In this document: in pieces, positions 393 to 17,817 of the stretch
How the letters are laid out: each line of letters begins with the position of its first letter
Numbering within the stretch: the stretch's first letter is position 1
Origin: Nitrospirota bacterium
Lineage (GTDB): Bacteria > Nitrospirota > UBA9217
Reading direction: 5' to 3'
Assembly: GCA_963796285.1 (NCBI GenBank)
Contig: CAWCKW010000003.1
Span: 290,128-354,127, forward strand
Length of the DNA: 64,000 bases
The notes under the pieces: generated by a model
What the model was told of the DNA's origin: nothing
What the model saw: the letters and a program-made list of their open reading frames with translations, nothing else
The model's database searches: none
Made by a program: the position numbers and the translations under genes

Positions 393-574
393 GGGTTGCT
401 CCTTTGCGCTGTCACCTGCCGCGCTGTGCTCCTGGTTTCGTGATTTCGAAAATAACCGTTTACGGATAGAGTCCGTTCGTCCGATACTCCTGCAGGAAGT
501 ATGACAATTTTCATCCCTGTGTCCTGTGCGTTTTCCCTCAGATTCGTATTTGCCCATACTATCCTGCTTTCTTT

Positions 575-3500
575 TTACTGGCCGCTGAACCACTTGACGG
601 CATCTCGTATGCTCATCTGGTCAAACTTCATTCTCAGCTTGATGAACGGACCCGCGCTGGTGAAATCAGACTGGGAGAAGTCGCGGTCCTTAAATCCGGT
701 GAAATTATATCCCAGGCTGATCCATATATTGCTCCCCGCGTTAAAGCCCACGGACGCCCCGGTCCCGAACGTCTCCTGGTTGATGCTGTAGGAGTGGAGC
801 CGCATGCCGCGCAGGCCTGCATCCCACGTCTTTGTGATATCATAACGGCCCTCCAGCCCGATCAGGTCCGTGTATCCGCGATAATCGCTATCATCGATGG
901 TTTCCAGGACGTATTTTGCTCCATACTGCAGGGAAACCTGGGTCCTTTCGTCCGTCTTGATGTTCGCGACGAGATTGTTCACGACGCGCTGGTTGTTGTC
1001 ATAGGTCACGGTCCCGCCGTCCTGCTTATCGACGAGAAAATCGAGGCGGTCCAGAATAATGAGGCTGGTCGTGACCGGGCGGTATGCCAGGCTCAGCCTA
1101 AGATCGTCGCTTTGCGTATGCTGCCCGGTCGAGTCAACGGTGCGGAACATTTGCAGTCCGGCCGCGAGCGCGAATCCGCCCCCCACCTCGCCGTTCGCAC
1201 CCGTGAACAGGCCATACTTGTCCTCTGAATCCGAATTGCGCTTCTCGACCCGCGCTGTCCATGACCATTTTTCCTGATGGAATCCGGCGCCGAGGGAGAT
1301 TGCGGTGAAGTCCTCGCTGCTGGTTGATGTGGACGTATCATCGGTGCTCGTGGTGGACGTAGCCGTGCTGCGCAGTGTCTGGCTTCGGTCCAGGCTGCCG
1401 TCCACGCTCCACTGTTTTGTGATCTGCCAGGACTGCTTCAGGCCTGTGGTGGCGAAGAGCCGCACGCCGTTCTCGGTCGACTGCTGCTCCATGGTGGACC
1501 CGATCTGACCACCGGTCCACGGCGATGTCCTGACCCCGATCCGCGTGGTCGCGGTGTCTAACGCGGAGCCTTGCGTCCACTCCTGGTCCGCGTAGATCGT
1601 AGATTTCTCATTGAGCTTGTAGTCCGCCCCGACGGTTGTCTTTGTGGGATACTCAACGTTGTTGTTCGCTCCGATGGACTGATCCCGATTGATCCGGATC
1701 GCGGTCTTATCGGTCACCTGGTCCTTTACGCCGGCGAAGATCTGGTCGGACCGTTGCGTCTCGCCGAAGCTCTGCGTCTCGTCGGTGCTTAGGGTGTCTA
1801 TAGCCTGGCGCAGGCCCGCCGTCAGTGTATACCGGCCCACCGCGTAATTGCTCCGGACCTCGGCCATGTCGCGAACCGCGCCGGTGGACAAGTCGTTCTG
1901 CTCGAACACCTCACCGCTGACGGTCCACGGCTTGTTGATCCGGTAATTGAGGTCCGCCCCGACCTTCCGGGTTCCCGACTCGCTGGCGTTCTGCTGACCG
2001 AGTCCGAACCCGACTTGCTGTTCCCGAACGTATGCCTTCCCCTCCACTTTTTCAGAACGGTGCTGCAACTCCGCGAGATACGCGTCGCCGTTGCTCGTGA
2101 CACCGTCCTGGTCCGTCTTTGTCGTGGCGGCCTCGGCCCGGAGCGTATCGTGCTCACCGAGCTTGATCTTCGCATCGACCCCCTCGAGATTGCCCGAACC
2201 ACCCACCTGGCCCTCGTGGACATGGGAGGCGCCGACCTCGAGACGGCTGTCGAGGAACCGTGCCGCGACGCGGCCGCCATAGTTGTATTTCTTGTCCGAG
2301 TCGTCAAAGGAATCATATTCCGCAACAATGAAAATTGGATTGAAATCCCCGTCACTGCTGTTCACCGGACTCTTGAAGAAAATGGTCCCGGCATCGTAGT
2401 CGATGGTATAGTCAAGTTGGTTGGTCAGCTGTTGGCTCGAAAGAATGACCTCGCTCTTGAACCGGTCCCGGGTCTCGAGTGTGATCGTATCGGAATTGAG
2501 CACAATATTCTTCCGGGACAGGTGATACAGTCCCGAGGTGCCGTCTCCCGATAACTCGTCCCGCACGTGCGCCTGGTTCGTATCCGCAAGAAAAACGGCA
2601 TATTCGTAATCCTTGGTCTTCATCTCCGATTTGAACCCGGTGAAGTTCCGGCTGTACCGTGAAAGCTCGGTAAGGGAAAGGCCGGCGTTGAAATCGCCGA
2701 ACAGGGCATAGAACTGGTCGCGCTCCAGCTTGACATAGATGTGCTTTGCGCTGGCTGCGTCGTTGCTCTGCATTGTACCGTCGCCATACAACGTGTAATA
2801 TTTATTTGGATCGATGGTCTGGTACAGGCTCGCCTGGTCCGTGCTGTCTGTTTTTTTGCTGTCATAGGCCAGCGTAAGCAGCCACTCGCCCTTGATCCTG
2901 CCTTTGGCATAAAAGGCCAAACGGTCCTCTTCGAAGTATTTATCATCACCACTCCCGGACGCGAAGGTCTCCATGTTGCCCTTCACTGCATTGTATCCCA
3001 CCGTGCCTTCGGCCAGGCCGACGAGGACCCAATCCCGGTCCCCCGGCTTGAGCCACGTTCGGATTTCCTGGGTCGTGCCATCGGCAACCTGGAAGCGGAG
3101 GACTGCTTCACCGGTCTGCATGGTCGGCTGGAGCTCGATGAGGGCAATGCCGTTCTCTCCCACATGATATTTCTGGCGATCGTTGGTCGACGCGGTCAAG
3201 GGGTTCTGCTGGAGGTCTTCGACCCGCTGGCGCGCAAGATACGGCGGATCCACCCTGTACTCGCCCATGACGCCCTCCCGCGCGGGATGACCTTCCTTGT
3301 CGGTCAGCAGGACGGCTATGACCGGCGCATTCTTGCCGTCCGCCGCGAGTTTTGACTGTGCGGGAACAAATTCCGCCTTGACCGGAGACCCCGAATAATG
3401 CATGACCCGCTTCACGCGGGAAGTCTCGGTTTTGTTTTCATCGTATTCCACGCCCTCGAAAAGATTGTCGCCGTCAATCAAATGGATGCCTCTCCAGAAA

Positions 3501-6409
3501 CTGACCGCAACTCTGTTGTCTTGCCGCGCGGTCGTGTTGTCGAGATAAAACGCGTCCACTTCCTCTCCGTTCAGGAACAGTTTAAATGATTTCGAGGGAT
3601 CGTGTTTGATCACGATATTCGTGCTCGCGATCGGGGGATGGTATCCCTCAGAAGGCCAGAGCCAGGACAAACCTATCTGCGACTTCTCCATCCAGTCCAC
3701 ATCGTAATCGGGCATGGTTTTGCCGTCTTTTTCCTTTGCCCTCTGGTCCGGGGCCCATTCTTCACCCTGCGCCAGGCCAGTGATCGACACGGTCTTCTTG
3801 CCGCTCGTTTCCTTGTCGTTGCGGATAGAGGTCCAGGCGGAATCCCTGCGCGTGTCGAACGTGGGATGGAGCGCGACGTCGGGTTCGCTCGTCTGACGCT
3901 TCAACTCATAGCGGACAAGGTTCGTGTCAGCCACGGGAGTCTTCACTCCTTTTTCCGCCGGAGTGTCGAAAACCAGGAACGCCTTCGTGGACAGATTTCC
4001 TTCAACACCGTGCGCCGGCGCTGTCGCGAGTAAAGCGACGGACCCCTCCCACCCGGCGGGCCGCTCGCCCAGATGATAGGTCAGGACGCCATCGCCGAGG
4101 TCAGGATCGGGGACCCGACCGTCAGTCAGACTGCTGCTTCCCGCCGCGTACGATACGCCGTCCGGCATCATCACGATCAGCCGGAGGTTCCGCACCGGGA
4201 CCGCTCCCACATGCAGGTTGGCCGAGTAAGCGAGGGTGTACCGGCCGTTCGCGTCCGGGAGAAGGCAATTCTCGTTCACGAATGGCACCATGGCCGCATC
4301 ATCGTTATTGCCGTTCACGTACGGCTTCGCGGTGCCGGTCTGGGCCATGGCCGGGGAATTCTTCTTCTGTTCGCCGAAAGGAGTACACGTTTGGGCCGCA
4401 GCCAGGGAAGCCCCCGGCTCAACGTCAACAGGGTTAATCGACCCGGTCCGGGTCGTGACCAGAGAGGTCCGCAGTTCAAGGCCAACCTCGCCGGTCTGTT
4501 TCGCTTTCGGAGGACGGAGCGCCAGATGGAAATCGGCCCTCCACAAGGTGCCGCCTTGCAAATCCACGAACTGCGAAAAAGACCTGCCCGCGAAACGCGT
4601 GTTGTCCTCGCACTGCGCGGACTCGTATTGATCGGGTACCGTGACCGTATCAAGCTGCACCACGTGGGTCCCCGCGTTAACAGCCGCAAAGTGATACATC
4701 CCGTTCTTGTCGGTCACGACATAGGACCCTTCCTCGAGGAAGATGCGGACCCCTGCGATGCCGCGCCCGTTGTCGCCGCAGCCGTCGAGGACTCGGCCGA
4801 CAATGGTCGTCTTGGTCATAAAGAAGTCCTCGGTCACCTGGACCGTGGTTGTTGCCGTATTGGATTTCACTCCAGAGGTGCTGTTCGCCACGGCCGTGTT
4901 CACTGCCTTGCCAAGGTTGGCGCCCGCGCCTACCTCCGTGACATAGCTGACATCCGCCGTTGCCGCGGCGGCGAGATCGCCGACCGTAAAAGTTAAGCTC
5001 CGGCCGTCTCCGGAGATCGCAGGATCGGTCGCGCGGACGCTGTTCAGGCGCACCGACCCTTTTCGGTACCGGAAACCAACCGGCAGCCGGTCAATAATCG
5101 TCACCCCCGCTGCTGCAGCGGATTTGTTGATGTTCTCCACCGTGAGTGCGTAGGGAACAAAGTCGCCGATTGCCGCCGAGGCCTTGCCTGCGGATTTGAT
5201 CAGATAGAGCTGGGTGCTTGCCGGATCCGTGGGAATATCAATGCGGATAGCGGGCCCCGCGTTCACCACGAACTCCTCGCTTCGCGAGCCGGGCTCGGCA
5301 ATTGCGAAGGGGCCGCCCGACAGTGCCTGCAGAACGGCAGTCGCAACGTTCGAGGGAGACCGGTATCCAGAGGGCGGCAGGACATCGAGGCGATAGTGGC
5401 CCGGGCTGATGAAGGGGAAACGATAACCGCCCGGGGTCAGGGAATAGACCTTGCCGCTGCTGTCCACCGCTGTACCGCCGGTGGTGAGGGTGGAAGGAAA
5501 GGTCGCGACACCGTCATCACCATACACGGTCGCGGGACTGCCCGTGGCGGTGTTCACGAGGGTGACGCTCGCCCCGTCGACAGGCTGGCCGGTCGCGCTG
5601 TTGAAAACGATCCCAAAGGGATCAACGAGCGCCGAGACGGAAGTCTTGTCAACGGGATCGGACGGGTCTGTATAGGAAACAATGACGTTCGAGTCGTTCA
5701 CCATGCTGAGCATGCCGTTGTTCAGCGTGACCGACTGGGACGTGGATTGAATATATCCGAGGAACACGCCGGTATTGGGGCCCGTCTCCGTGAGGCGGAG
5801 CACCTCGGTGTCGCCTGTCTTGTCGTCGCGGATCGTTACGACAGCGGTCTCCGCGAGGGCAGGATCGTTGTTCTGGTCTTTGTCGGTCAGGCGGATGAAG
5901 ACCGGTTCGCCCGTGTGATATTGGGTCGGTGAAACAAGCGGCACCGGCTGGTTGATGTCAATGGCCGCGGAAGAGCCGGCAGGAACCGGCGCGCCGAGGA
6001 CAACAAAGGGCCCCGCGGTGTTTCCACTGGGACTGTACGATGTCGGTTTTACCGTGAGCTGTTGAACGCCGGTTGCGCCAGGCGCGTACTCCAGAAATTC
6101 TATGACCGCAGTCGTCCGCTGGACCATGGACGTCACTGACGCCGCTGGAGACGTTACGGTTACCGGACTGCCCGCGGATGCGGGTGTATACGTCGCGGTT
6201 GCGACATTGGTGATGATCGTGCCGGAAGGTGTGCTCGACCAGCCGACGGATGAGAACAGATGAATGAATAGGAATGATAACATCAAAATAACTATGGGAG
6301 AAAAAACCGGGACCGCTCCGGCGAACAGGCGCACCCCGGTTGTGCCTTCACCCTCGTGCGTGAAGGTACGGTCGGTTTGCGCGCCATTTGTGCTGAAGCG
6401 GTCCCTCAT
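575..6409 (-). CDS. Very large secreted DUF11/SdrD-B/Ig-repeat protein with C-terminal outer-membrane beta-barrel (putative fibre anchor/assembly platform)
   Basis: 1944 aa with a hydrophobic signal segment and N-terminal TPSGTIITNVATATY. It has a complete DUF11 domain (LIKSA..IIDRLP..AVNTA). The C-terminal ~800 aa are amphipathic beta-strands ending ..GPFIKLRMKFDQ. Confidence 0.85.
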   Translation of the reverse strand: MRDRFSTNGAQTDRTFTHEGEGTTGVRLFAGAVPVFSPIVILMLSFLFIHLFSSVGWSSTPSGTIITNVATATYTPASAGSPVTVTSPAASVTSMVQRTTAVIEFLEYAPGATGVQQLTVKPTSYSPSGNTAGPFVVLGAPVPAGSSAAIDINQPVPLVSPTQYHTGEPVFIRLTDKDQNNDPALAETAVVTIRDDKTGDTEVLRLTETGPNTGVFLGYIQSTSQSVTLNNGMLSMVNDSNVIVSYTDPSDPVDKTSVSALVDPFGIVFNSATGQPVDGASVTLVNTATGSPATVYGDDGVATFPSTLTTGGTAVDSSGKVYSLTPGGYRFPFISPGHYRLDVLPPSGYRSPSNVATAVLQALSGGPFAIAEPGSRSEEFVVNAGPAIRIDIPTDPASTQLYLIKSAGKASAAIGDFVPYALTVENINKSAAAAGVTIIDRLPVGFRYRKGSVRLNSVRATDPAISGDGRSLTFTVGDLAAAATADVSYVTEVGAGANLGKAVNTAVANSTSGVKSNTATTTVQVTEDFFMTKTTIVGRVLDGCGDNGRGIAGVRIFLEEGSYVVTDKNGMYHFAAVNAGTHVVQLDTVTVPDQYESAQCEDNTRFAGRSFSQFVDLQGGTLWRADFHLALRPPKAKQTGEVGLELRTSLVTTRTGSINPVDVEPGASLAAAQTCTPFGEQKKNSPAMAQTGTAKPYVNGNNDDAAMVPFVNENCLLPDANGRYTLAYSANLHVGAVPVRNLRLIVMMPDGVSYAAGSSSLTDGRVPDPDLGDGVLTYHLGERPAGWEGSVALLATAPAHGVEGNLSTKAFLVFDTPAEKGVKTPVADTNLVRYELKRQTSEPDVALHPTFDTRRDSAWTSIRNDKETSGKKTVSITGLAQGEEWAPDQRAKEKDGKTMPDYDVDWMEKSQIGLSWLWPSEGYHPPIASTNIVIKHDPSKSFKLFLNGEEVDAFYLDNTTARQDNRVAVSFWRGIHLIDGDNLFEGVEYDENKTETSRVKRVMHYSGSPVKAEFVPAQSKLAADGKNAPVIAVLLTDKEGHPAREGVMGEYRVDPPYLARQRVEDLQQNPLTASTNDRQKYHVGENGIALIELQPTMQTGEAVLRFQVADGTTQEIRTWLKPGDRDWVLVGLAEGTVGYNAVKGNMETFASGSGDDKYFEEDRLAFYAKGRIKGEWLLTLAYDSKKTDSTDQASLYQTIDPNKYYTLYGDGTMQSNDAASAKHIYVKLERDQFYALFGDFNAGLSLTELSRYSRNFTGFKSEMKTKDYEYAVFLADTNQAHVRDELSGDGTSGLYHLSRKNIVLNSDTITLETRDRFKSEVILSSQQLTNQLDYTIDYDAGTIFFKSPVNSSDGDFNPIFIVAEYDSFDDSDKKYNYGGRVAARFLDSRLEVGASHVHEGQVGGSGNLEGVDAKIKLGEHDTLRAEAATTKTDQDGVTSNGDAYLAELQHRSEKVEGKAYVREQQVGFGLGQQNASESGTRKVGADLNYRINKPWTVSGEVFEQNDLSTGAVRDMAEVRSNYAVGRYTLTAGLRQAIDTLSTDETQSFGETQRSDQIFAGVKDQVTDKTAIRINRDQSIGANNNVEYPTKTTVGADYKLNEKSTIYADQEWTQGSALDTATTRIGVRTSPWTGGQIGSTMEQQSTENGVRLFATTGLKQSWQITKQWSVDGSLDRSQTLRSTATSTTSTDDTSTSTSSEDFTAISLGAGFHQEKWSWTARVEKRNSDSEDKYGLFTGANGEVGGGFALAAGLQMFRTVDSTGQHTQSDDLRLSLAYRPVTTSLIILDRLDFLVDKQDGGTVTYDNNQRVVNNLVANIKTDERTQVSLQYGAKYVLETIDDSDYRGYTDLIGLEGRYDITKTWDAGLRGMRLHSYSINQETFGTGASVGFNAGSNIWISLGYNFTGFKDRDFSQSDFTSAGPFIKLRMKFDQMSIRDAVKWFSGQ

Positions 6410-6422
6410 AACAATCGGTCAG

Positions 6423-6452
6423 GCCCCCTGCCCGAGCCACTTGGCAGGGGGC
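6423..6452 (-). promoter_or_regulatory. Intercistronic 10-bp GC hairpin without a U-tail after the 370-aa gene (mRNA stabiliser or partial terminator)
   Basis: GCCCCCTGCC-N10-GGCAGGGGGC perfect inverted repeat. Confidence 0.6.
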
Positions 6453-6466
6453 GTCATCTCTTCCTC

Positions 6467-7552
6467 CTACTGGATAGTAGCCTGGTACACAATGGTCGCT
6501 GTTTGACCCGTGGCAAGAGAACTTATCGTGGCTGTCAGCGTTTGGCCGGCCCAACTGCTGGATCCGCTGCCGCCGGTAAGACAGGCCCAACCGCCACTGG
6601 CTATATTCGCCCTTGCCTGTCCCGCACATCCGGAGCCGCCGCCGGCAGTTACGCTGGTCCACGCCGCGGTAACGGGCACTAACGTTGCCGTCAGTGCGTC
6701 GGTGACCGTAACGGCTGTTGCGGTGCTCTGGCCCGCGGGGTTATTGATCACTACGAGATACTCCATGATAGCCCCGGGTATCGCCTTCGGGGTTGACGTG
6801 CCGTTGATCGGATCGCTGTACACGACCGACGACTTGCTGACCGTCAGGTTCGTCAGGGCCGCATGATAAGCGCTCCTTGCTGAATGCTTGCCGTCTCCGG
6901 CAGGATCATCCGTACCCGCAACATCGCCCAACACCACGTCCGCGGTGCATGTTCCATATGCGCTGGTAATGGTACTGGTATTGTTCGCCTCAGCCGTCGT
7001 CCCGTCGACTTTATAGGCCTGGGCACGCAGCGCGTAAACTGCATAGGCGCCGTTGGTCAACCCCGCCGGCATGGTCGCAATAATGGTCACGGTCGTGGAA
7101 GAACCCGCTGACACTATCGCTGTGGCGGCGGCCGATGCCGCGTAGCTTTGTGCGTTAAAAGCATCGGTCACCGTATTGTTTCCGGAGAAGACAGACGTTG
7201 TAGAACCGGATACTTCCTCGACTGCGGTCAAAGCATACGTCTGATTTGCGTTGCCGTTGTTCGTTATCGTGAACGTCAACACCGCGCCTGATTGATTCGA
7301 AACAACCGATACGCCCGGCGAGGCATCAGTGGTCGTCACCGTGAGGTTGACCCGGTTGCCCACCACAATAGTACTCGTATTGGAGCTGACCACCGCCTGC
7401 GCGAACCCCCCCACATTGTACGCGACAGCAGCTGTGTTGCCGATCGGGGTACAGGCCGGGGTAAACGCCGCCATGGCTGCTTGCGGCACTGCCAGCGCTA
7501 TGACCAGGCACAGAAGCAATCCGACGATTATTGGAACTTGTCTCATTTTCAT
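6467..7552 (-). CDS. Secreted DUF11 protein, putative major fibre subunit
   Basis: ATG at 7552 with AAGGAG SD. Signal peptide ends AMA|A. N-terminal FTPACTPIGNTAAVAY. C-terminal DUF11 (VSKSS..AIPGA..VTDAL) ends at VYQATIQ. Confidence 0.85.
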   Translation of the reverse strand: MKMRQVPIIVGLLLCLVIALAVPQAAMAAFTPACTPIGNTAAVAYNVGGFAQAVVSSNTSTIVVGNRVNLTVTTTDASPGVSVVSNQSGAVLTFTITNNGNANQTYALTAVEEVSGSTTSVFSGNNTVTDAFNAQSYAASAAATAIVSAGSSTTVTIIATMPAGLTNGAYAVYALRAQAYKVDGTTAEANNTSTITSAYGTCTADVVLGDVAGTDDPAGDGKHSARSAYHAALTNLTVSKSSVVYSDPINGTSTPKAIPGAIMEYLVVINNPAGQSTATAVTVTDALTATLVPVTAAWTSVTAGGGSGCAGQARANIASGGWACLTGGSGSSSWAGQTLTATISSLATGQTATIVYQATIQ

Positions 7553-7797
7553 GTTGCTCTCCTTTGGTTTATAATTCACTGTAAGCTTCCTGGATCGTTA
7601 TTGTTGTCATGCCGAAAATACCGGCTCGATCGATTACTTCGCCTTTTCACACACTCGGTGATTTCGGGCTATGGCGGATTTTCTATGCACCATTGCTGTT
7701 TCATAATCCTTACCTCCTAAATTTTTTTTAAATTCAAAGCTGAGAACCTTAAATCCTTAGAAGTTGTTCAGTTTAATACATTTGCCGGAACGTTCGT

Positions 7798-8292
7798 CTA
7801 TTGCACCCTGGCCCTGAAGGAAACACTGCCCTTAGCGCCTTTTTGCAAGGGTTTCTCAATGGTCCATCGTATATGTGTGTAATCCGCCGCCGCCGCGCGC
7901 CGCTCCTTCCCGTCGGAGGACGTTACCTTCAATTTATCGGCCGCCGCGTAGGTCTTGCCCTTGTCAACGGAAAATTCGATCCTCGTCCCATTGCCCTCGG
8001 CCGTGCCGTCCACGTAGAGCATGTGCTCGGGCACCGGATTTTTTATAACAACATCGGTTGCCGGCTTATCTCCGGCATAGGTATAATTATTGGTAAAAAT
8101 GACCGTTTGTCCGGGCGCGACATTCCTAGTCGTGGCATCGATCCGTTTCACCTCCTTTTTGCCCTCAGCATTGGTCTGCGTAACTTCAACCTCGGATACC
8201 GTTTTGATATCGAGTACGCCTTTTTGCTGCGCCCACACCGCCGCCGGCGCGAGAAGCGCAGCGGTAAATACCAGATACAATACTTTTTTCAT
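7798..8292 (-). CDS. Small periplasmic single DUF11-like domain protein (putative chaperone/cap)
   Basis: 164 aa with signal peptide ending VWA|Q. VAPGQTVIFTNNY..VVIKNPVP..HIRW..VSFRARVQ. Composition is charged and Lys-rich, unlike the Thr/Ser-rich neighbours. Confidence 0.85.
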   Translation of the reverse strand: MKKVLYLVFTAALLAPAAVWAQQKGVLDIKTVSEVEVTQTNAEGKKEVKRIDATTRNVAPGQTVIFTNNYTYAGDKPATDVVIKNPVPEHMLYVDGTAEGNGTRIEFSVDKGKTYAAADKLKVTSSDGKERRAAAADYTHIRWTIEKPLQKGAKGSVSFRARVQ

Positions 8293-8309
8293 AGTCCTAT
8301 CCTCCTCGT

Positions 8310-9341
8310 TTATTTGATCTTCACTTCAAAAGTTATCGTCTGTATCGGCGACGAACTCGTCAGGTTCCCGAGTTTCACGGTCACCGCATTCGGCGTCGTC
8401 AATCCAACGTCCCCGGCGTCGGTGTCGGCGATATCGGTGAGGGCCGTGTTGTTCAGCCGGAGCGAATTGGCGGTATACGTCGTGTTCACCGGCAGCGGAT
8501 CGCTGATCACCACGTTGTTCGCCGTGCCGCCTCCCTTTGTGCTCGCCGCAATCGTGTACCGGAGCGTCGCGCCCGGTATGGCCAGGTTTCCGCCCCATTG
8601 GTCGAGGATTGTCACGGTCTTGTTCAGGTTCACGTTCAATGCCGCAACGGATACGCCGAAGACGCCGGTTGCCGAATGTTTTCCGTCCCGTGCCCCATCG
8701 CCGACAGCGCTTCCCGCGACGTCCAAAAATACCGTGTCGATACCCGATGAATTGGGCCCCGTGGATTGCATCGAACTGTTCAAGGTGCCGGCATCGACAG
8801 CTGTTGCCACCAGGTCGTAAAGCGCTGTTTGGCCGGTTGTCAGGCCCGCAGGCGCGTCCGCCACGATCAATACGGTGACCGACACGCCGGAGGCAAGGTT
8901 CCCGAAGGTGCTTGCGTTGCTGTACAGGGTGTCTCCCGAGTCCCAGGTGCCGCCGTTGTTATTGTCGCGAAAGATACGAACATTGTTCATGGTCCATGTG
9001 TTCGTAGCCTTTGACACGGCCGATAATGCGAAGCGCATGGCCGTATTGCTCGTATTGGAGACGAGGAACGACAAAGCCACGTTGCTGGAGGTCGGCGCGG
9101 TATTCACGTCGGAGTTCTTGGTCACAACCACGTTGATCGCCCGGTCCACCGTGAAGGAATTCCCGGCTGTCGCGGTATGGGTCAGGCCGTCCTGGACAAA
9201 ACTCACGGCGACGGTGTTCGTGATGACCGTCCCCGCAATCGTGCCCGCGGCCCCGGCCGTGCCTACCGCAAAAAGACAACAGGCAAAGCAGGTGATGATC
9301 GCCCAGTATGCCGCGTAATATGTTTTCTTGCTGTTTTGCAT
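8310..9341 (-). CDS. Secreted DUF11 protein, putative minor/adaptor subunit (paralog of 6467..7552)
   Basis: Signal peptide then AGTIAGTVITNTVAVSF. Shares DVAG...DGKHSA with the 370-aa protein. C-terminal DUF11 ends ITFEVKIK. Start is uncertain (9341, 9368 or 9383). Confidence 0.85.
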   Translation of the reverse strand: MQNSKKTYYAAYWAIITCFACCLFAVGTAGAAGTIAGTVITNTVAVSFVQDGLTHTATAGNSFTVDRAINVVVTKNSDVNTAPTSSNVALSFLVSNTSNTAMRFALSAVSKATNTWTMNNVRIFRDNNNGGTWDSGDTLYSNASTFGNLASGVSVTVLIVADAPAGLTTGQTALYDLVATAVDAGTLNSSMQSTGPNSSGIDTVFLDVAGSAVGDGARDGKHSATGVFGVSVAALNVNLNKTVTILDQWGGNLAIPGATLRYTIAASTKGGGTANNVVISDPLPVNTTYTANSLRLNNTALTDIADTDAGDVGLTTPNAVTVKLGNLTSSSPIQTITFEVKIK

Positions 9342-9396
9342 AGTCGTATTCGTTCGGCCATCGTCCATCGCCGGCAGGGACAATAGCGTAAGCGCC

Positions 9397-12300
9397 TTAG
9401 TTGATCTGCATCTTGAACATCACGGTAAAACTTGCACCGCCTCCGTTCAGCGTCCCGCTGGGTTTGATGCGCACCCCTTTGACCAGCGGATCGTAACCGA
9501 TGGTTGTGGGGGGATAGACATAAGGCGGACCGCCGCCGGACTGATACGAATAGGAAACCGCGTTCGCATAGGTCCACGGCGTCGTCAGGCCGCAGCTGCT
9601 GCACGAGAAGGTTACCGCGATGCCGGCGGTATCGACGTACATGGTCGTATTGGCCGGGACGACGTCCGAGACGACAATCGAGTCCGCGTCCGCCACGCCG
9701 CCGCCATTGTTGATCACCTGAATCGTATATTGGATCTCCGCGCCGGGGATCGCCTTAGCTGACGCTGACACCCCGTTGATGGGATCGGAGATGACCGACG
9801 CTGATTTCACGACCATGATATTCGGCAGCAACTGCACGAGGAACGTGCCCACGCCGGTGTCCGATACCGTGTTTTCCGTCCCTTCCTTGGCCGTGATGCT
9901 ATAGGTCCAGATTCCGCCGGGGCCGGCGCCGGGCACCGTGTACGCGTACTCGTATGTATTGGTCCCTGAGGTGGACGATACTATGTTGGTTAACGTGGCG
10001 GCGCTCACGAGCGTATTGTTGTTCGGGTCCTTGATCGTGATCGCTGCTGAGGAGATATCGAAGCTTCCGAAGGGATCGCTCACCACCGGCCGCAGATAGA
10101 CCGTCTGACCGCCGGCATAGTTGCCTGATGCGGGGGTCGACGTACTGGGATACGTCGCAAGATAGGCGTTGACGCTGTTCACGGTGATGACTGTTGAGAC
10201 CGGCAGTACTGTTTTGGAGATGCTATTGCCCAAGGTAGTGTCCACCGGATACACCAGGATGCTGCGGCCTGCAGAGCTGTTGTTGGTTATCGTAAGGGTC
10301 AGGTAGTTGCCCGCGGTGCACGTGCGGGGGAGCGCGGCGCTCGTCAGGGTCACGTTCATCGTGGTTGTGGCTGCGGAGAAGAGCGTCCGCGTCGTGGTTC
10401 CGGTGAAGGCATTGGCGCCCCAGCTCGCCGAGCAGTTGAGCGTTGCCGCCGCGGTGTGATTGGTGTTATTGTTGCCCGCAAGGCTTCGCAGATAGAGCGT
10501 CAGGGGGACGTTCGCGGTGATCGTGACGTCTTTACGCAGAGGCTGGGTCTGGAGCGACCAGACAGCGGAGGCGGCGCTCGCGATCGTGATCGCGGTCGTG
10601 TTCGGCGCGACTGCAGATGACGGCGTTCTCGACATAAGGTAGGGGGAGCTTGCCCCGCCGTAGAAATAGAGCGGCTTATTGCCGATCAGCGAGACGATCG
10701 TGGCCGTGGTCGAGGACACTGCAGGCCCTGCGCCCACCGGAAGGGTGATGTTCGCTGTGTTGGCGATCGAGCCCGACATTGCCGAGACCGTGGCGTTGAA
10801 GACGATGGTTACTGAGCCACTCGCCGGGACCGTGATGCTCCGGATGTCAAGCGTTGTGGCGGTGGAAAAGTCCGCGGCGCCGGAAGGTATGCTTACCACC
10901 AGGAGGCTCGATAGATTTGTCGAAATCGTGTCAGTGACCTGCGCGCCGAAGGCCGTCACCGTCGAAGAACTGTTGATGAGCGTGATCGTGTACTGCAGGA
11001 CATCGCCGGGATTCACGTTGCCGCCGCCGGGGCCGCCGCTCAGGTCCGTCCAGGTCTTCGTGGATGTCGAGAGGTTCGGCGTTTGAACCGTGGTGGTGTC
11101 GGTAACCGTATAAGCATTTACTACCGGCCCCGATGAATTGGTGAACGTGAACGTGGCCCGTGTTACGATCTGGTCGATGGTGCCGGTCGGCGCGGACGAG
11201 AGGACCGTGTCCTTCACCAGGATGCAGATCGGCGTTCCCGCAGTCGCGCTGATGGAACCCGGCAATGCAATATCGCCCGCGTTGTAGATTCCACTGCAAT
11301 CCACATCCTGATACAGAACGACCGCAGGCCAGGTCGGCTGACTTCTGCTGTTCACAGCGAAACTGACCATACCGCCCGACCCGGGCGAAAATGTATGTGC
11401 GTAATAAAGCTGGGCAAGCTGCCCGCCGCTCAGAGCGAGCGAGGACGGAGACAGGATATTGTCCGGGACATTGCTGAGTACAAGGCCGGTGATCTCGGTC
11501 CCCCGGGTAAACGTGAAGGTGACATCGCGACTGCCGAGGTTCACCCCAGAACCAACGGCGCTGCCAGGGTTGTAGTTCACCATGGAGTATCCTGCCGGAA
11601 TCGTAGTCTCCGTGACCCGAGCCTTCGTGAAGTTAGTGCCCCAGGGCACGTAGAGCGAATAGGCCCCGTTAGCGTCGGTTGTGGCCGTGTCGATGGAAGT
11701 ACAGCTGCTGTCGTCACAGATGCTCACGTTCATGCCGGAGAGGCCCGTCTCTCCTGCGTTCTGGACACCGTTGTTGGCGTTCGCACCCACGGCGGCCCCA
11801 TCGTCCTTTAACGCAAGTCCGTCGATGCGGGTCCCGTTCAAGACACCGAAGTTCTGGTTGGTCAGATTCGATGAGCCCACCGCCACGCCGGAGAGGGTGT
11901 AATTGACCGGACTCGTGTAGATCCACTGGGTAGAGGGGAAGGACGGGTCGAAGGCAGTGTTGTTCGTGGTACTCAGGATAATCGTGTACGTGTCGTTGGT
12001 CGGCACGAGATTGAATGTGTAGGTTCCCGCGGCCTGATCGACCGATGTGATCGAAAGTGCGGAAACGAGATTGCTCGACCGGAAGAGCTTCGCATAAATG
12101 CCGGCAAGATTGGGGCTGTTCTCACCAGCGTCCCGGATGCCGCTGTGGTTGGCGTCGTTGTAGACCATGCCCGAGACAGTTGTTGAAGGACCCGACAGCG
12201 CGACCGTGGTGGTGTCGGTCACGTTGTAAGTGCCGGTCAGCGGCCCGATGGAGTTGGTGAACACGAATGTCGCCCGGGTGACAATCTGGTCCGTGATCCC

Positions 12301-14604
12301 GAGCGTTATGCCTGCGGGGATCGTTTCTTTGACCAGGATGCAGAGCGGCGTTCCAACGCTGGCAATAAACGAGGCGGGCAGCGCGATGTCGCCCGCGTCA
12401 TAGGAACCGTTGCAGTTTACGTCCTTATAGAGCGTCTTCAGCCATGTCTGGGTCTGGCTGGAAACAACGAAACTGACCGTCCCGCCGCTCCCGGGCGTAA
12501 ACACATGACCAAAATAGACCAAGGAGGGGGAACTGCCTATCTGTGTTAGAGAAGAAGGCGAGAACACATTGTCTTGTATGTCGCCGAAGATGATGCCGTT
12601 GTACTTGTTGTATAGCGTGTAAGTGAACTGGATGTATTCGGGCGGTCCCATGGTGTAAGCGCCGCCGGTGCTCCCGACATTGGCGTTCACCGACAGGTAA
12701 CCCGCGGGATTGGTCTCGTAAACCCTCAGCGTCTTACTTGCCGTGTTCGTAAACAGCATGAAGGTGCCGCCGCTGTCAGTGGTTGTAGTGTCATAGGTCG
12801 TGCCGCCGGTATTGTTCGTAAGCCAGACCGTCACGCCGGAGACCCCGGTCTCGGCCGCGTTCAGCACACCGTCGTTGGCATTTGATGGAGCGCCATTGTA
12901 CCCGTTGTCATTGATCACCCTGCCAAAAATGCGGGAGCCATGGTACACGCCGAAGTTCTGGCTGCTCACGCTGGAGCCGCCAACGATCACATTCGAGAGC
13001 GTGAAATTGAGAGGGTTCGTGTCGACCCATTGGGCCGTAAATAGCGGCGTCGGGTCGATCAGGCTGTTGTTTGTACTCAGAATGATCGTGTAATTCTCAT
13101 AGGAAGGCACGTTCACAAACGTGTAAGACCCCGCGGTTACCAGCACGGCCTGCAGGGCCGTGATCATATTGCTGGATCGGAATAGTTTCGCGTAATAATT
13201 ACTTCCCGTGTTGGCCGCCGTTTCACCGCCATCAAGGGTACCGTTATGGTTGGCATCATTGAAGACAAAGCCCGAAACAGAAACAGTAGCGCCGGTCACG
13301 GTTGCAAGCACGGACGCGCTGTTGTTGCCGGAGTTGTAGTCCGTGATCACCGCAGGCACGGTCAATGAAGCCGTGTTCATGATCTGGGTGCCTGGCGTCG
13401 CGGAGCCGCTCACCGTCCCCCGTACCGTATAGGTCACCGAACCGTTAAAAGGCAGTGTAGCGGTGCCGGCGCTCGCGATGTTGATCGTGCCGGTACCCGA
13501 AGCGCTGCCGCAGACTCCGCCGCCTGAGCCGGTACAGGTCCAGGTGACGCCGGTCACGAGGGCCGGAAAAGTATCATCGATCGGCACATTGACGGCTGTC
13601 GTATTGGCAGGACCGTAGTTCTTCGCTGTGATCGTATAATTGATCTGACCGTTCGCCGTAACCGAGGGATTCGAAACGAGTTTGGTGATCGCGAGATCAA
13701 TGTCCGTCTGGAGCGGGTCTATCAGCAGGTTTCGGATCTCATGGTAGTTCGTGGAGCCGCCGGTGCTTGCCGCATAACCGATCTTGACCGAAGCTGGTAT
13801 CGGCCTGCCGGTAAAGAGTCCCGTGATCACCGGCGTCACTGGCTGGTTATAGCCGAACTGGATATAGGTATCGACCTGCAGGTAATTTGGCGCAGGGACC
13901 GGCGTCAGTTTGATCACGACCTTGCGGTATTGGGAACTATACTGGATCGGCCGATAAAACTGGTTGTTGAAAGCGAGTTGATTTCCTGCTATGGCGCCCG
14001 ATCCGCCAAGCCAGTAATAGGCACCCGAGGGATGATTGTACGGCCCGCGAACGCCCACTTCGTTCACCTGCTGACCTGGCCCGCCAAGGCGTCCCTCGCT
14101 GGGATTCGAGAAGTTCCCATACTCGTCAATGCCGATGCCGATGTATCCGCCGGTGAGGCCTGAATGAAGCGGGGCCACGGTTTTTTTATCGTATCCGAGG
14201 GAACCGCCTGAAGCGCCGGGCGCGAAGGTCATTGCATCATAGGACCCGTCAAAAAGAAAGACGCTGTATCCGTCGGCCCCATTCCCGCCCCAGGTCGCGT
14301 AATCGAACTGGATGACCACACCCGTGGAGATATCAAAGGGAGAATCGAAGAAGGCGAACCCCGACTGATTTGTGAGAGGTTCGGTGATTCGCAGCCAGCC
14401 GTCCCCGGCGGTGTCGACGCCGGTACTTGCAGTAAGGTAGGCGCTTCCGCCGATCACCCATCCGGGAGAGGACATGCCGGTCATTGGCTCATTGACGATC
14501 GAGGCCCAGGCGCTGTTACTGAAAAGCCACCCCGAAACTACCAGGATAAATACGAGTATTCTCAGTGAGGAACGAAACCCCGAACTTCTATTTGGGATTG
14601 TCAT
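9397..14604 (-). CDS. Large secreted adhesin: L-type lectin-like N-domain, DUF11 domains, duplicated SdrD-B modules, C-terminal DUF11
   Basis: 1735 aa. Legume-lectin-like motifs GADGYSVFL, GASGGSLGY, GIGIDEYGNF and GYAASTGGSTNYHEI. Ca-binding-type DxNxNG motifs (NDANHNG, NDANHSG). Three DUF11 domains. Confidence 0.85.
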   Translation of the reverse strand: MTIPNRSSGFRSSLRILVFILVVSGWLFSNSAWASIVNEPMTGMSSPGWVIGGSAYLTASTGVDTAGDGWLRITEPLTNQSGFAFFDSPFDISTGVVIQFDYATWGGNGADGYSVFLFDGSYDAMTFAPGASGGSLGYDKKTVAPLHSGLTGGYIGIGIDEYGNFSNPSEGRLGGPGQQVNEVGVRGPYNHPSGAYYWLGGSGAIAGNQLAFNNQFYRPIQYSSQYRKVVIKLTPVPAPNYLQVDTYIQFGYNQPVTPVITGLFTGRPIPASVKIGYAASTGGSTNYHEIRNLLIDPLQTDIDLAITKLVSNPSVTANGQINYTITAKNYGPANTTAVNVPIDDTFPALVTGVTWTCTGSGGGVCGSASGTGTINIASAGTATLPFNGSVTYTVRGTVSGSATPGTQIMNTASLTVPAVITDYNSGNNSASVLATVTGATVSVSGFVFNDANHNGTLDGGETAANTGSNYYAKLFRSSNMITALQAVLVTAGSYTFVNVPSYENYTIILSTNNSLIDPTPLFTAQWVDTNPLNFTLSNVIVGGSSVSSQNFGVYHGSRIFGRVINDNGYNGAPSNANDGVLNAAETGVSGVTVWLTNNTGGTTYDTTTTDSGGTFMLFTNTASKTLRVYETNPAGYLSVNANVGSTGGAYTMGPPEYIQFTYTLYNKYNGIIFGDIQDNVFSPSSLTQIGSSPSLVYFGHVFTPGSGGTVSFVVSSQTQTWLKTLYKDVNCNGSYDAGDIALPASFIASVGTPLCILVKETIPAGITLGITDQIVTRATFVFTNSIGPLTGTYNVTDTTTVALSGPSTTVSGMVYNDANHSGIRDAGENSPNLAGIYAKLFRSSNLVSALSITSVDQAAGTYTFNLVPTNDTYTIILSTTNNTAFDPSFPSTQWIYTSPVNYTLSGVAVGSSNLTNQNFGVLNGTRIDGLALKDDGAAVGANANNGVQNAGETGLSGMNVSICDDSSCTSIDTATTDANGAYSLYVPWGTNFTKARVTETTIPAGYSMVNYNPGSAVGSGVNLGSRDVTFTFTRGTEITGLVLSNVPDNILSPSSLALSGGQLAQLYYAHTFSPGSGGMVSFAVNSRSQPTWPAVVLYQDVDCSGIYNAGDIALPGSISATAGTPICILVKDTVLSSAPTGTIDQIVTRATFTFTNSSGPVVNAYTVTDTTTVQTPNLSTSTKTWTDLSGGPGGGNVNPGDVLQYTITLINSSSTVTAFGAQVTDTISTNLSSLLVVSIPSGAADFSTATTLDIRSITVPASGSVTIVFNATVSAMSGSIANTANITLPVGAGPAVSSTTATIVSLIGNKPLYFYGGASSPYLMSRTPSSAVAPNTTAITIASAASAVWSLQTQPLRKDVTITANVPLTLYLRSLAGNNNTNHTAAATLNCSASWGANAFTGTTTRTLFSAATTTMNVTLTSAALPRTCTAGNYLTLTITNNSSAGRSILVYPVDTTLGNSISKTVLPVSTVITVNSVNAYLATYPSTSTPASGNYAGGQTVYLRPVVSDPFGSFDISSAAITIKDPNNNTLVSAATLTNIVSSTSGTNTYEYAYTVPGAGPGGIWTYSITAKEGTENTVSDTGVGTFLVQLLPNIMVVKSASVISDPINGVSASAKAIPGAEIQYTIQVINNGGGVADADSIVVSDVVPANTTMYVDTAGIAVTFSCSSCGLTTPWTYANAVSYSYQSGGGPPYVYPPTTIGYDPLVKGVRIKPSGTLNGGGASFTVMFKMQIN

Positions 14605-14721
14605 GTGTTCATCCCCATGGTTGAACAGTTTTTTGCATTGTTGAACAAAATTTGCATATATAACCAGGTTATGATTTGCCCCCGTAATCCTTCAGGGCGT
14701 TATTAATATCCAATATGCTTG

Positions 14722-14749
14722 ATTATACAGAAATATAAATTATTGTCAA
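14722..14749 (-). promoter_or_regulatory. sigma70-type promoter of the DUF11 operon
   Basis: Minus strand reads TTGACA-16nt-TATAAT, preceded by an A-tract. Confidence 0.7.
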
Positions 14750-15392
14750 TACTTTTTTTTGTTGTTTTATCGGCATTAGAATAGCCGGTCTTTCTTCAAA
14801 GCGTCGGTGCCACAATGCGAGCTTGTAAGACTCCAAGTCCTCGCTCCGGGAGCTGATTATTTTAATAATGCAGGGCTTTTCTTAGTGCTTTCGTATCATA
14901 GGTGGGGTAATTTTTTGCAGACTAACATCAAGCGGTAATGTTTAATCTAAAAAAAACAGCAGTTATGCACGCAAGGCCGCCCCGATAGATCCAGGCGAAG
15001 TCAGGCTCCGGACGTTAAGAAAAAAGAAAAGCTTGTTAATGACTTCATCCAGTTAGCGATGCCTTTTTTCGGATCAAGCGCTTATTTATTCTGTATGATC
15101 CGACCTATGTGGACCTTCACTTGTATATCTGTGACTAAATGCTCTTTATAGGTTTAAGAATTGTGCGCTTTTGTAATACAGGCTATTCTGGTTTTTTGAT
15201 CAAGACCATGAAGATAATTTTTCCTAACTTCTTTGCGATTGGCGTTTCGGTTAATATGCCATGGTATATTAACGATTAATACATGAAATCTCCCTCAAAT
15301 AATTACTGTGAAATGCGGCCGCTCATTATAGTACGGCATCAGCATGCGGAGAGGCCTTGCTCATCCTCGTTTCTACAGCCGGCCGGGCACGC

Positions 15393-16494: not shown

Positions 16495-17817
16495 ATGCAC
16501 GTACCATTCACTAAACAGATCATTTTTATCGGTCTTTTGTTACATCTCGTCATGACGGTTTCCCCCTCCTGTGCGCAGGAACACGCGAACAGGGATTATG
16601 AAATAGCGGTTGCCAAGGGCACGCTGCAAATTGAGACCGGTGAATACAGTGAAGCCATTGCGTCACTTAACAAAGCGCTGGAAATCAAAGAAGATGACAA
16701 GGCGGCCACCCAGTCGCTCGGCATCGCTTATTCACGGTCAGGAGACTTTACTGCCGCCCACAGGGTCCTGCTGAAGGCCCTTGAGATCGACAGAACCGAT
16801 TTTCGGACCCGCTATGAACTTGGCATTTCGAGTTACAAGCTCGGGGATTCGGAAAATGCCGGGCGCCTGTTCCGTGAAGTTGCCGACGGCGGTGCTGAGG
16901 AGCAACTGACGATCGGCGCAAAAAGGTATCTTGACCTCCTGTCTTCAGAAGAAGCTGGACATAAGAAAGAGGCGTTCACCCTGGACGTGCTCGCCGGGCT
17001 CCAGTATGACTCGAACGTTATTCTGGAACCGTCTGACGCAGCAGCCTCGGACGGAAAAAAGGCGGATTGGCGCGCTATCGCGATGGTGAACGCCGCATAC
17101 CCGTTGATAAAGATGGAACGCACAACCGCCGAAGCAGGGTACCGCTTTTACCAGAGCGTGCACAACAGCATTCAGGGCTTCAATGTCCAGCAGCACAATC
17201 TCGGCCTCGGCGCAAAGATCGTTGTTGCCGATGATGTGCGGGCAGGCCTGAACTACCAGTATAGCTATTCACTTGTGGGAGGAGACCGCTACAGCATTAT
17301 TCACCAGATCATGCCGTTAGTGTCCCTGGATCTCTCTTCATATCAGACCGCAGAACTTGCCTATACCCATGAGTCAAAGAAGTTCTTCGATAACAGCGAC
17401 TTTATCGGGAATACCGACCGGTCCGGGAACAACAACGCTGTTGGTTTGACCTATCGTCATGAACTTGGCAAGGACCTTGGTGTTTCAGCGGGCTATGCCT
17501 ATGACAAGGATTTCACATCCGCATCCAATTGGTCATATACGGGTCACAAAGGGTCCGCGGGCGCACACGCGGTATTCTCCGGCTTCACGTTTTTTGCGGG
17601 ACTGTCGTACACTGCCAGGAACTATGGTGACACGTTTCCCGGGTTTACGGACAAGCGGAACGACCGAGTGCAGGAATATTCATTGAACATCGTCCGGGAA
17701 ATCTCCAGGCGCATGAGAATCGACCTATCGGAGCTGTATGTGAAGAACCAGTCGACCCTTTCACCCTATGACTACAGCAGAAATATAGTGGGGCTCTCGG
17801 TGGTCGTGACATTATGA
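16495..17817 (+). CDS. TPR-containing outer-membrane beta-barrel protein (Slam/DUF560-like or NsrA-like)
   Basis: Signal peptide and N-terminal TPRs. The barrel starts at AGLQYDSNV and ends YDYSRNIVGLSVVVTL. Confidence 0.75.
   Translation: MHVPFTKQIIFIGLLLHLVMTVSPSCAQEHANRDYEIAVAKGTLQIETGEYSEAIASLNKALEIKEDDKAATQSLGIAYSRSGDFTAAHRVLLKALEIDRTDFRTRYELGISSYKLGDSENAGRLFREVADGGAEEQLTIGAKRYLDLLSSEEAGHKKEAFTLDVLAGLQYDSNVILEPSDAAASDGKKADWRAIAMVNAAYPLIKMERTTAEAGYRFYQSVHNSIQGFNVQQHNLGLGAKIVVADDVRAGLNYQYSYSLVGGDRYSIIHQIMPLVSLDLSSYQTAELAYTHESKKFFDNSDFIGNTDRSGNNNAVGLTYRHELGKDLGVSAGYAYDKDFTSASNWSYTGHKGSAGAHAVFSGFTFFAGLSYTARNYGDTFPGFTDKRNDRVQEYSLNIVREISRRMRIDLSELYVKNQSTLSPYDYSRNIVGLSVVVTL

Follow-up and report, generated by a model that had tools for sequence, protein, structure and literature searches.

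The window analysed here, a stretch of 64,000 nucleotides from a Nitrospirota bacterium (contig CAWCKW010000003.1, positions 290,128 to 354,127 of the forward strand), contains an operon of five genes for secreted proteins, P0001 to P0005. According to our analysis its products probably form a pilus-like fibre on the surface of a diderm bacterium, with split DUF11 domains as the building principle: the strand missing at the end of one subunit would be supplied by the next one, the joint would be locked by an isopeptide bond, and the fibre would grow tip-first and be anchored by a beta-barrel. In silico we could document the split architecture, its conservation, the synteny of the genes, a head-to-tail model of the interface and the barrel. 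DUF11 has been renamed CLIPPER, and its intramolecular isopeptide bond was confirmed by crystallography (PMC12617251).

The five open reading frames (ORFs) follow one another on the minus strand in the same orientation (575-14604), and a signal peptide was found at the N-terminus of every product. Their positions, from ORF translation, are as follows.

9397-14604, minus strand: tip protein P0001, 1735 amino acids (aa)
8310-9383, minus strand: adaptor-type pilin P0002, 357 aa from a TTG start
7798-8292, minus strand: small secreted protein P0003, 164 aa
6467-7579, minus strand: major pilin candidate P0004, 370 aa from a GTG start
575-6409, minus strand: anchor P0005, 1944 aa

For P0002 an ATG at 9341 is a more likely start than the TTG and gives a homologue-like protein of 343 aa, and for P0004 an ATG at 7552 is likely, giving 361 aa.

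DUF11 or TIGR01451 matches were confirmed with Pfam and NCBIfam in four of the five proteins, P0001, P0002, P0003 and P0005. The Pfam model of DUF11 (PF01345, cut-off 24.6 bits) scored 69.5 bits in P0001, 35.1 in P0005 and 25.5 in P0003; P0002 stayed under this cut-off with 19.4 bits and reached 32.9 bits with TIGR01451 (cut-off 24). P0004 is without a direct Pfam or NCBIfam match, is a paralogue of P0002 (profile E 2e-63), and some of its homologues carry PF01345. In Pfam, P0001 also matches SdrD_B (68.7 bits) and P0005 also matches CarboxypepD_reg.

In the internal DUF11 domains the Lys, Asp and Asn are found within one domain, with three intact triads, K308/D344/N410 and K1183/D1225/N1282 in P0001 and K405/D440/N504 in P0005. 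The C-terminal domains of tip, adaptor and pilin keep the Lys and Asp (K1600/D1647 in P0001, K255/D295 in P0002, K249/D294 in P0004) and end after the penultimate strand, the stop codon following directly on ...FKMQIN, ...FEVKIK and ...YQATIQ, respectively. P0003 is a fourth truncated DUF11 domain and ends in ...VSFRARVQ. The Asn strand, including the preceding G-T-x-x-G-T loop, stands directly after the signal peptide of P0002 (N56), P0004 (N48) and P0005 (N68), with the consensus G-T-x-x-G-T-x-I-x-N-x-A-x-V-x-Y, and for the four C-terminal domains the Asn is on the N-terminus of another polypeptide. Complete triads in the whole domains, C-terminal domains of the 1735-, 357- and 370-aa proteins that stop before the Asn strand, and 357-, 370- and 1944-aa proteins whose mature N-terminus carries the missing strand had all been described in a first, sequence-only reading of this DNA, and all motifs quoted there were found again. 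The strands and domains concerned are the following.

7412..7468, minus strand: donor strand of the pilin P0004, residues 38-56, with Asn48 at 7436-7438
6470..6856, minus strand: acceptor domain of the pilin P0004, residues about 242-370, with Lys249 at 6833-6835 and Asp294 at 6698-6700
9400..9831, minus strand: acceptor domain of the tip P0001, residues about 1592-1735, with Lys1600 at 9805-9807 and Asp1647 at 9664-9666
9198..9248, minus strand: donor strand of the adaptor P0002, residues 46-62, AGTIAGTVITNTVAVSF, with Asn56 at 9216-9218
6188..6235, minus strand: donor strand of the anchor P0005, residues 59-74, STPSGTIITNVATATY, with Asn68 at 6206-6208

Donor strands and acceptor domains are distributed asymmetrically. 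The tip and the small protein are acceptors only, the anchor is a donor only, and P0002 and P0004 are both. Tip, small protein and anchor therefore cannot be completed in cis, and this asymmetry is the strongest argument that the sequences offer for a complementation that would take place in trans. The sequence-only reading had drawn an ordered chain from the same distribution. Its acceptor-only tip, its pilin with both parts and its donor-only anchor stand; the 164-aa acceptor had been overlooked, and the place given there to the adaptor is uncertain.

The candidate major pilin P0004 consists of a signal peptide, the donor strand, an Ig-like domain 1 and the truncated C-terminal acceptor domain, in this order. 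Among 8000 candidates scored, 167 homologues were obtained at E ≤ 0.001, and 117 sequences were aligned after dropping 4 fragments. N48, K249 and D294 are invariant in 117/117, as are T40, D256 and P268, and all 117 sequences end at the same strand. From the conservation of the three reactive residues and the homology to CnaA-like domains we infer that a Lys-Asn bond would lock the joints covalently.

Two pairs of cysteines were observed in the same alignment. C43 (7451-7453) and C211 (6947-6949, both on the minus strand) occur together in 61 of the 117 sequences and are both absent from the other 56, with no mixed case, which suggests, at the level of sequence, a C43-C211 disulfide that would tie the beginning of the donor strand to domain 1. 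Co-occurrence of C318 and C333 is looser (57 with both, 36 with neither, 24 mixed).

Two copies of the mature pilin (residues 38-370) were modelled as a complex with their own 56-row alignment and with 3 controls. The interface score ipSAE was 0.72 and that of the best control 0.00; contact agreement between runs was at least 85%, and the predicted local distance difference test score (pLDDT) of the partners at least 91. The ipSAE mark was reached by 20/30 solved same-chain pairs and by 1/23 solved single chains, a rough yardstick only, an own alignment having been used here. In this model the two pilins are arranged head to tail and asymmetrically, the N-strand of one lying in the C-domain of its partner, and this is the strand insertion that had been expected from the sequence for a pair of 370-aa subunits. 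Copy 1 takes part in the interface with its C-domain (residues 242-300, 355 and 369-370) and copy 2 with its N-strand and the neighbouring domain 1 (residues 39-76, 109-110, 213-218 and 228). Residues 287-294 run antiparallel to 56-50, with contacts D294-A50 and V247-V52, and N48, K249 and D294 are all inside the modelled interface.

A search of the pilin profile against PDB sequences gave nothing at E ≤ 1. Since the pilin is without a solved relative by sequence, recall of a known complex by the predictor is unlikely. The fold of the pilin C-domain resembles isopeptide domains of Gram-positive pilins, namely PitA, SpaD, RrgB, EbpB/C and SpaA (Z 7.8-8.5), and Foldseek with the pilin model gave generic tandem Ig matches (integrin legs, CNA, Csu). 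Triad conservation, donor/acceptor asymmetry, the synteny described below and the complex model together support donor-strand complementation between subunits via the split DUF11 domain.

The other acceptors share the truncation of the pilin. P0001 starts with a signal peptide and a head that is weakly lectin-like, continues with complete DUF11 and SdrD_B domains and ends in the truncated DUF11 acceptor; the head matches the L-type lectin family PF18483 with E 4e-5 and 24 bits, under the cut-off of 78.3. There is no donor strand in 13 aligned tips, the acceptor Lys is kept in 13/13, and the Asp is kept wherever the alignment covered it. Against PDB sequences the P0001 tip gave no match at E ≤ 0.1. 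Acceptor Lys and Asp of the adaptor are each conserved in 112/112 adaptor-type homologues of at least 320 aa.

P0003 is a single truncated DUF11 domain, an acceptor without a donor strand and without a conserved Lys or Asp. Its family is large: at E ≤ 0.001 it has 2017 representatives and at E ≤ 1e-10 still 805, and some members are giant proteins with many DUF11 domains. In 122 aligned relatives of 150-200 aa, the Lys position is occupied most often by K (31), T (27), E (13) or S (11) and the position of the Asp by D in 14, and all 122 end at the same strand. As an observation on this family, Asn takes the place of the catalytic Asp in 99/122. The PDB search with P0003 returned only antibody light chains, at E > 0.2.

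The anchor P0005 begins with a long signal peptide and the donor strand, followed by Ig-like domains that include one complete DUF11 (residues 403-519) and the CarboxypepD_reg match; then come two beta-sandwich domains, and the C-terminus is a giant beta-barrel. Homologues of P0005 numbered 1582 at E ≤ 0.001 among 8000 candidates scored. The strict Asn-strand pattern is present in the first 200 aa of 62/82 anchor homologues with a signal-like N-terminus and in 0/82 control windows (residues 1201-1400); of the 20 homologues missing it, 18 have a shorter xNTAxAxY form, judged by eye, and 2 are truncated gene calls. Anchors have the donor strand, and their C-terminus is a barrel instead of an acceptor domain. 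Two features of P0005 are:

623..2731, minus strand: predicted outer-membrane beta-barrel, residues about 1227-1929, from an AlphaFold2 (AF2) model; the last strand, GPFIKLRMKF, ends in Phe
3856..3857, minus strand: junction of a 108-aa in-frame deletion of an OmpA domain, after P0005 residue 851, from an alignment with the homologue P0127

The AF2 model of residues 880-1944, made with a 49-row alignment, has a mean pLDDT of 69.5 and a predicted template modelling score (pTM) of 0.50, and contains two beta-sandwich domains, a poorly defined stretch and about 32 long antiparallel strands from residue 1359 on. Structural comparison of the modelled barrel gave FimD (9fxs_D) as best match, with Z 16.9, a root-mean-square deviation of 5.8 and 320 aligned residues, then another FimD entry (15.6), OprC and FoxA (14.9) and PapC (14.0), which hints at an usher-like barrel without setting it clearly apart. 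Foldseek with the same barrel model returned matches of low TM only (≤0.25), to SprA, SlpA, LptD and TonB-dependent receptors, and the look-alikes of the barrel in the Atlas belong to clusters of stand-alone proteins of about 850 aa, labelled 'outer membrane protein' (scores 0.97-0.98). The C-terminal 1100 aa of the anchor are the best-conserved part of the operon, with 55-75% identity in most loci and 38-45% in the two most distant ones (L036 and L038); most pilins are at about 33%.

An OmpA domain (PF00691) was found in about 97 of the 120 anchor homologues listed. In P0127, which is 93% identical to P0005, it is placed at residues 855-957, after the N-terminal Ig region and before the barrel; the deletion is common to P0005 and P0130, and metatranscriptome contigs of a relative (X1, described below) diverge from the window at 3856/3858. 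OmpA-like domains are periplasmic and bind peptidoglycan. Since such a domain is periplasmic and the donor strand must reach the fibre, the anchor chain must cross the outer membrane. Judged from the model, the simplest route for this crossing would be its own wide barrel, and the barrel protein may be a translocon as well as an anchor.

Two further observations concern the N-terminal half of P0005. In residues 1-58 (6236-6409) and in the homologues, about 35 partly conserved residues precede the hydrophobic core of the signal peptide; presumably this long region resembles the extended signal peptides of autotransporters. Residues 262-357 (about 5339-5626) are similar to the designed 'Pizza' beta-propeller (E 2e-6), the only PDB sequence match of the protein, and by this similarity they are probably one or two propeller-blade-like or Ig-like repeats of the N-terminal stalk.

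In a sample of 401 same-phylum genomes, 30 match at E ≤ 1e-10, including 19/63 in the window's own family, and the genome of the window has one such locus only. For synteny, 23 loci from 23 of the 29 other matching genomes were searched with tblastn. Pilin, anchor N-region and small protein were found in 23/23, the barrel in 19/23 (the remaining 4 stop at contig ends), the tip C-domain in 21/23 and the lectin-like tip head in 9/23. The usual order is tip, adaptor, small protein, pilin, anchor, with a tip-like gene elsewhere in L035, L036 and L038, in the latter two after the anchor. Co-conservation of the five genes, suggested earlier as a check together with that of the donor/acceptor pattern, is complete for small protein, pilin and anchor N-region; the adaptor gene is missing in 3/23 loci (L042, L050 and L051), where tip, small protein, pilin and anchor are contiguous. 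In the 14 loci checked for flanks the five genes have no further conserved companion: ORFs upstream of the operon lack a counterpart there, and the ORF just downstream recurs in only 2.

One locus departs further from the usual layout. In L035 (G173:C10, 10206-13389) two pilin-type genes (423 and 374 aa) flank the small-protein gene, and the tip gene is on the opposite strand about 5.5 kb upstream, so pilin number and tip position vary between systems.

Relatives are named by their sources as metagenome-assembled genomes of Nitrospirae, Desulfuromonadales, Geobacter and Parasphingorhabdus, and the pilin homologue P0096 is named for Pontixanthobacter aquaemixtae. By source names the family extends across Nitrospirota, Desulfuromonadales/Geobacter, Alphaproteobacteria, Acidobacteriota and Verrucomicrobiota, and the only annotations of its members are 'uncharacterized repeat protein' and 'OmpA family protein'.

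Pfam searches of the whole genome (96% complete) gave no match for the usher PF00577, which is equally missing from the operon proteins, none for the PapD-like chaperone PF00345 (PapD_N), both with a positive E. coli control, and none for sortase PF04203, with three positive controls. None of the four subunits has an LPXTG motif or a hydrophobic tail, all of them ending in the penultimate DUF11 strand. The genome contains Omp85, and the host is therefore a diderm. Both the diderm host and an operon without usher, PapD chaperone or sortase, as proposed in the sequence-only reading, are borne out by these searches.

Several observations weigh against the fibre as we propose it. The K249-N48 pair is not among the 25 contacts listed for the two-copy model, both residues being in the interface. 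The AF2 monomer model of the pilin (pLDDT 90, pTM 0.73) is confident also at the N-strand, with pLDDT about 95 for residues 41-60, so that a closed pilin completed by its own strand is conceivable. The adaptor has its donor Asn in only 72/112 homologues (otherwise S in 23, C in 7, T in 5, D in 2, G in 2 and F in 1), and the tip Lys is kept in 6/6 loci whose adaptor is without this Asn. Confidence of the barrel model is moderate, and the TonB-dependent OprC and FoxA reach Z 14.9, about 2 under the best usher match. P0005 itself is without the OmpA domain, and RNA evidence for the operon consists of contigs only.

The confident monomer model would suit circularly permuted monomers, in which the N-strand inserts into its own C-domain and forms an intramolecular isopeptide bond, and the operon would then encode five separate, non-polymerising surface adhesins. 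Self-complemented states are also met in structure predictors and in some real pilins, such as the 'closed form' of TafA (PMC11821415). We regard this explanation as very improbable: tip and small protein have no donor and the anchor has no terminal acceptor, and they would stay incomplete or orphaned; the two-copy model is asymmetric and head to tail, with a score that no control approached; and the gene set stays together across the 23 loci, apart from the adaptor in three. It is also unlikely, if somewhat less so, that the fibre is held by non-covalent strand complementation as in chaperone-usher pili, with Lys, Asp and Asn conserved for packing or folding. The isopeptide bond was not observed here, the adaptor Asn is replaced in 40/112 homologues, and the small protein keeps the truncated fold without Lys and Asp, so docking needs no triad; in addition, oligomers of the BsaA N35A mutant from Clostridium perfringens are stable in sodium dodecyl sulfate until heated (bioRxiv 10.1101/2024.11.04.621531). 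However, N48, K249 and D294 are kept in every aligned pilin despite a mean column identity of 32% in the 56-row alignment, the same triad forms the crystallographic bond of intact DUF11/CLIPPER domains (PMC12617251), and it is lost only in the small protein, where a role outside the polymer is plausible.

A third explanation touches only export: the 1944-aa protein might be an anchor and terminator, with subunits crossing the outer membrane in another way, e.g. by a general secretion system, and a barrel that is no translocon. It draws on the lack of a Pfam usher signature in operon proteins and genome, on a moderate barrel model whose usher matches are not clearly apart from other barrels, and on the similar stand-alone barrels of about 850 aa elsewhere. 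We consider it doubtful, though not far-fetched, given that no further conserved gene goes with the five in the 14 loci checked for flanks, that an OmpA-like domain lies between donor region and barrel in most homologues, whose chain must cross the membrane, and that conservation within the system is highest in the barrel region.

Within the proposed fibre, the joint between tip and adaptor needs a separate discussion. As the adaptor Asn is variable and the tip Lys is kept, either some of these joints are non-covalent or the adaptor docks to a different acceptor. The relaxed adaptor Asn, the kept tip Lys and the three loci without an adaptor lead us to the reading that the tip can probably take the pilin donor strand directly, with the small protein as a possible partner of the adaptor. 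Covariation as a sign of tip-adaptor pairing, i.e. loss of the tip Lys or Asp together with loss of the adaptor Asn, was not seen, the tip Lys being kept in all six such loci. Of the 40 residues that replace the adaptor Asn most are nucleophilic (S, C and T), which would fit either an ester or thioester cross-link or relaxed selection.

According to our model of the fibre, all five proteins would be exported by Sec, and the barrel would be inserted by the beta-barrel assembly machinery. A C-terminal domain without its last strand would leave an open groove, and the donor strand of each incoming subunit would fill the groove of the previous one. Growth would be tip-first, beginning with the lectin-headed tip and continuing with an optional adaptor and many 370-aa pilins, with the 1944-aa anchor added last. 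After docking, the acceptor Lys and the donor Asn would form an isopeptide bond autocatalytically, as in intact CnaA-like domains, aided by the acceptor Asp, which would make each step an irreversible ratchet; every joint would become covalent without a sortase. The fibre would leave the cell through the P0005 barrel in an usher-like manner. The donor strand of the anchor would terminate growth, the base would stay threaded in the barrel, and the OmpA-like domain would clamp it to the wall. The small protein would bind donor strands reversibly, as a chaperone against premature polymerisation or termination, or as a cap. Like the covalent bond, this subunit order, the passage through the barrel and the function of the small protein are inferred.

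The layout of the locus itself offers a few additional observations. Intergenic gaps from P0001 to P0005 are 13, 17, about 218-245 and 57 nucleotides (nt). The gap upstream of the pilin gene (7580-7797) is by far the longest, the others being 13-57 nt, and an internal promoter may be located in it, or else a processing or attenuation element, by which expression of the pilin would be raised. Upstream of the operon there is a promoter-like site:

14722..14749, minus strand: TTGACA-16-TATAAT, matching 12/12 consensus positions, about 118 nt upstream of P0001

This site is a consensus match only, and the region contains 10 promoter-like sites with 7.7 expected from shuffles. Divergent neighbours on the plus strand (16495-18605) encode a secreted tetratricopeptide repeat (TPR) protein and a FecR-domain protein; neither has a counterpart beside the operon in 14 related loci. 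In the soil metatranscriptome X1, 79 contigs are 90-99% alike to window positions 400-15000 and cover all 30 operon bins, and a close relative of the operon is thus present in this RNA library; the contigs may include DNA, cannot prove transcription and cannot rank the genes.

Our results can be placed between two groups of pili. Covalent pili are known from Gram-positive bacteria, with joints made by sortase, and to our knowledge the pili of diderms are held by non-covalent strand complementation or by helix packing. If our reading of the operon is correct, a self-locking diderm fibre joins these two worlds and adds an extra pilus class for bacteria with an outer membrane, in a large family that spans several phyla. 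It would also be a possible tool for biotechnology, as a natural, polymerising module for protein ligation.

Type 1 and P pili are assembled tip-first (FimH-FimG-FimF-FimA-FimI, with FimC and FimD); they have a tip adhesin that is an acceptor only and a terminator subunit, and each N-terminal extension completes the Ig fold of the subunit before it. The operon is similar in its proposed tip-first order, its acceptor-only tip, its donor extension and its proposed terminator, and the modelled barrel has FimD and PapC among its best structural matches (Z 16.9 and 14.0), with TonB-dependent barrels in between (14.9); for the pilin, completion of the Ig fold of the previous subunit by the N-terminal extension is seen at the model level only. 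In contrast to chaperone-usher pili, there is no Pfam usher or PapD_N here, covalent joints are probable, terminator and barrel form one protein that usually includes an OmpA-like domain as well, and the candidate chaperone offers a groove and not a strand.

Sortase pili (SpaA, RrgB, Spy0128) share with the operon CnaA/CnaB-type Ig pilins and Lys-Asn chemistry, and the pilin C-domain resembles them with Z of about 8. Their joints, however, are made by sortase, from the Thr of LPXTG to a pilin Lys, and their autocatalytic bonds are intramolecular only, whereas here there is neither a sortase nor an LPXTG C-terminus, and the joint itself would be the autocatalytic bond. Type V pili of Bacteroidota (Fim/Mfa) have lipoprotein precursors, from which an N-terminal strand is removed by proteolysis, and a C-terminal donor strand. 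Unlike these, the signal peptides of the operon proteins end in A-x-A without a lipobox Cys at the cleavage site, and the donor strand is N-terminal. SpyTag/SpyCatcher is an engineered split CnaB2 domain, in which a strand peptide and the remainder of the domain lock via a spontaneous Lys-Asp/Asn isopeptide bond. That pair is man-made and joins two partners once; the operon, if our reading is true, would hold a natural, polymerising and CnaA-like version.

CLIPPER fibrillar adhesins belong to the domain family found here and show its Lys/Asp/Asn signature, and intact copies of these domains are present inside tip and anchor here (PMC12617251). In the adhesins described there the domains are tandem repeats in one polypeptide with intramolecular bonds, whereas in the operon the cut falls between the last two strands of the terminal domain, whose two parts are on different polypeptides. 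The polymer would therefore be, topologically, a tandem-repeat adhesin made from separate subunits.

Close in mechanism are the biofilm fibres of BsaA, a TasA-family protein of Clostridium perfringens, for which a donor-strand 'exchange and lock' with N35, K74 and E56 is supported by mutants (bioRxiv 10.1101/2024.11.04.621531). BsaA likewise has an Asn in an N-terminal donor strand that enters the sheet of the neighbour, an acceptor with Lys and an acid, and an autocatalytic intermolecular isopeptide bond without sortase; in the operon the Asn, Lys and acid are conserved in sequence and the bond is predicted. The fold is different, TasA/camelysin-like in BsaA and DUF11/CnaA-like Ig here, the acid is Glu in BsaA and Asp here, and the host of BsaA is a monoderm. 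BsaA has neither an outer-membrane barrel nor a tip/adaptor/anchor set nor a Lys/Asp-free acceptor. Pfam gave no TasA-type match in the five operon proteins, only DUF11-type and other Ig-like families.

The archaeal thread of Sulfolobus acidocaldarius (Saci_0406) also combines donor-strand complementation with proposed intermolecular isopeptide bonds, and it is similar in its head-to-tail fibre, its N-terminal donor strand and a putative cap protein that is co-transcribed (PMC9715654). It differs in that its bond connects Asn57 to the N-terminal amine of subunit n+2, and not a Lys and an Asn of neighbours (PMC9715654). It is archaeal and without an outer membrane, and the pilin profile showed no sequence relation to it among PDB sequences at E ≤ 1.

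The principle of donor-strand complementation with an intermolecular isopeptide bond is already known from the archaeal thread and BsaA. In full-text literature no paper was found on a diderm split-DUF11 fibre, although the supplements of PMC12617251 (predicted isopeptide domains) could mention truncated domains. Not described in the literature found are this fold, the split CLIPPER domain, the diderm setting, the protein in which barrel, terminator and OmpA domain are fused, and the acceptor free of reactive residues. Beyond this, we advance tentatively, as a serious possibility short of a probable one, that the operon represents a distinct and widespread pilus pathway of diderms, with no sequence relationship to curli or to chaperone-usher, type IV, type V or sortase pili. 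In such a pathway covalent joints like those of SpyTag/SpyCatcher might serve as an export ratchet that needs no energy source, one barrel protein might unite translocon, terminator and peptidoglycan-clamped anchor, and a Lys/Asp-free 'decoy' acceptor might act as a chaperone of reverse polarity, which offers a groove where the chaperone of the chaperone-usher system offers a strand.

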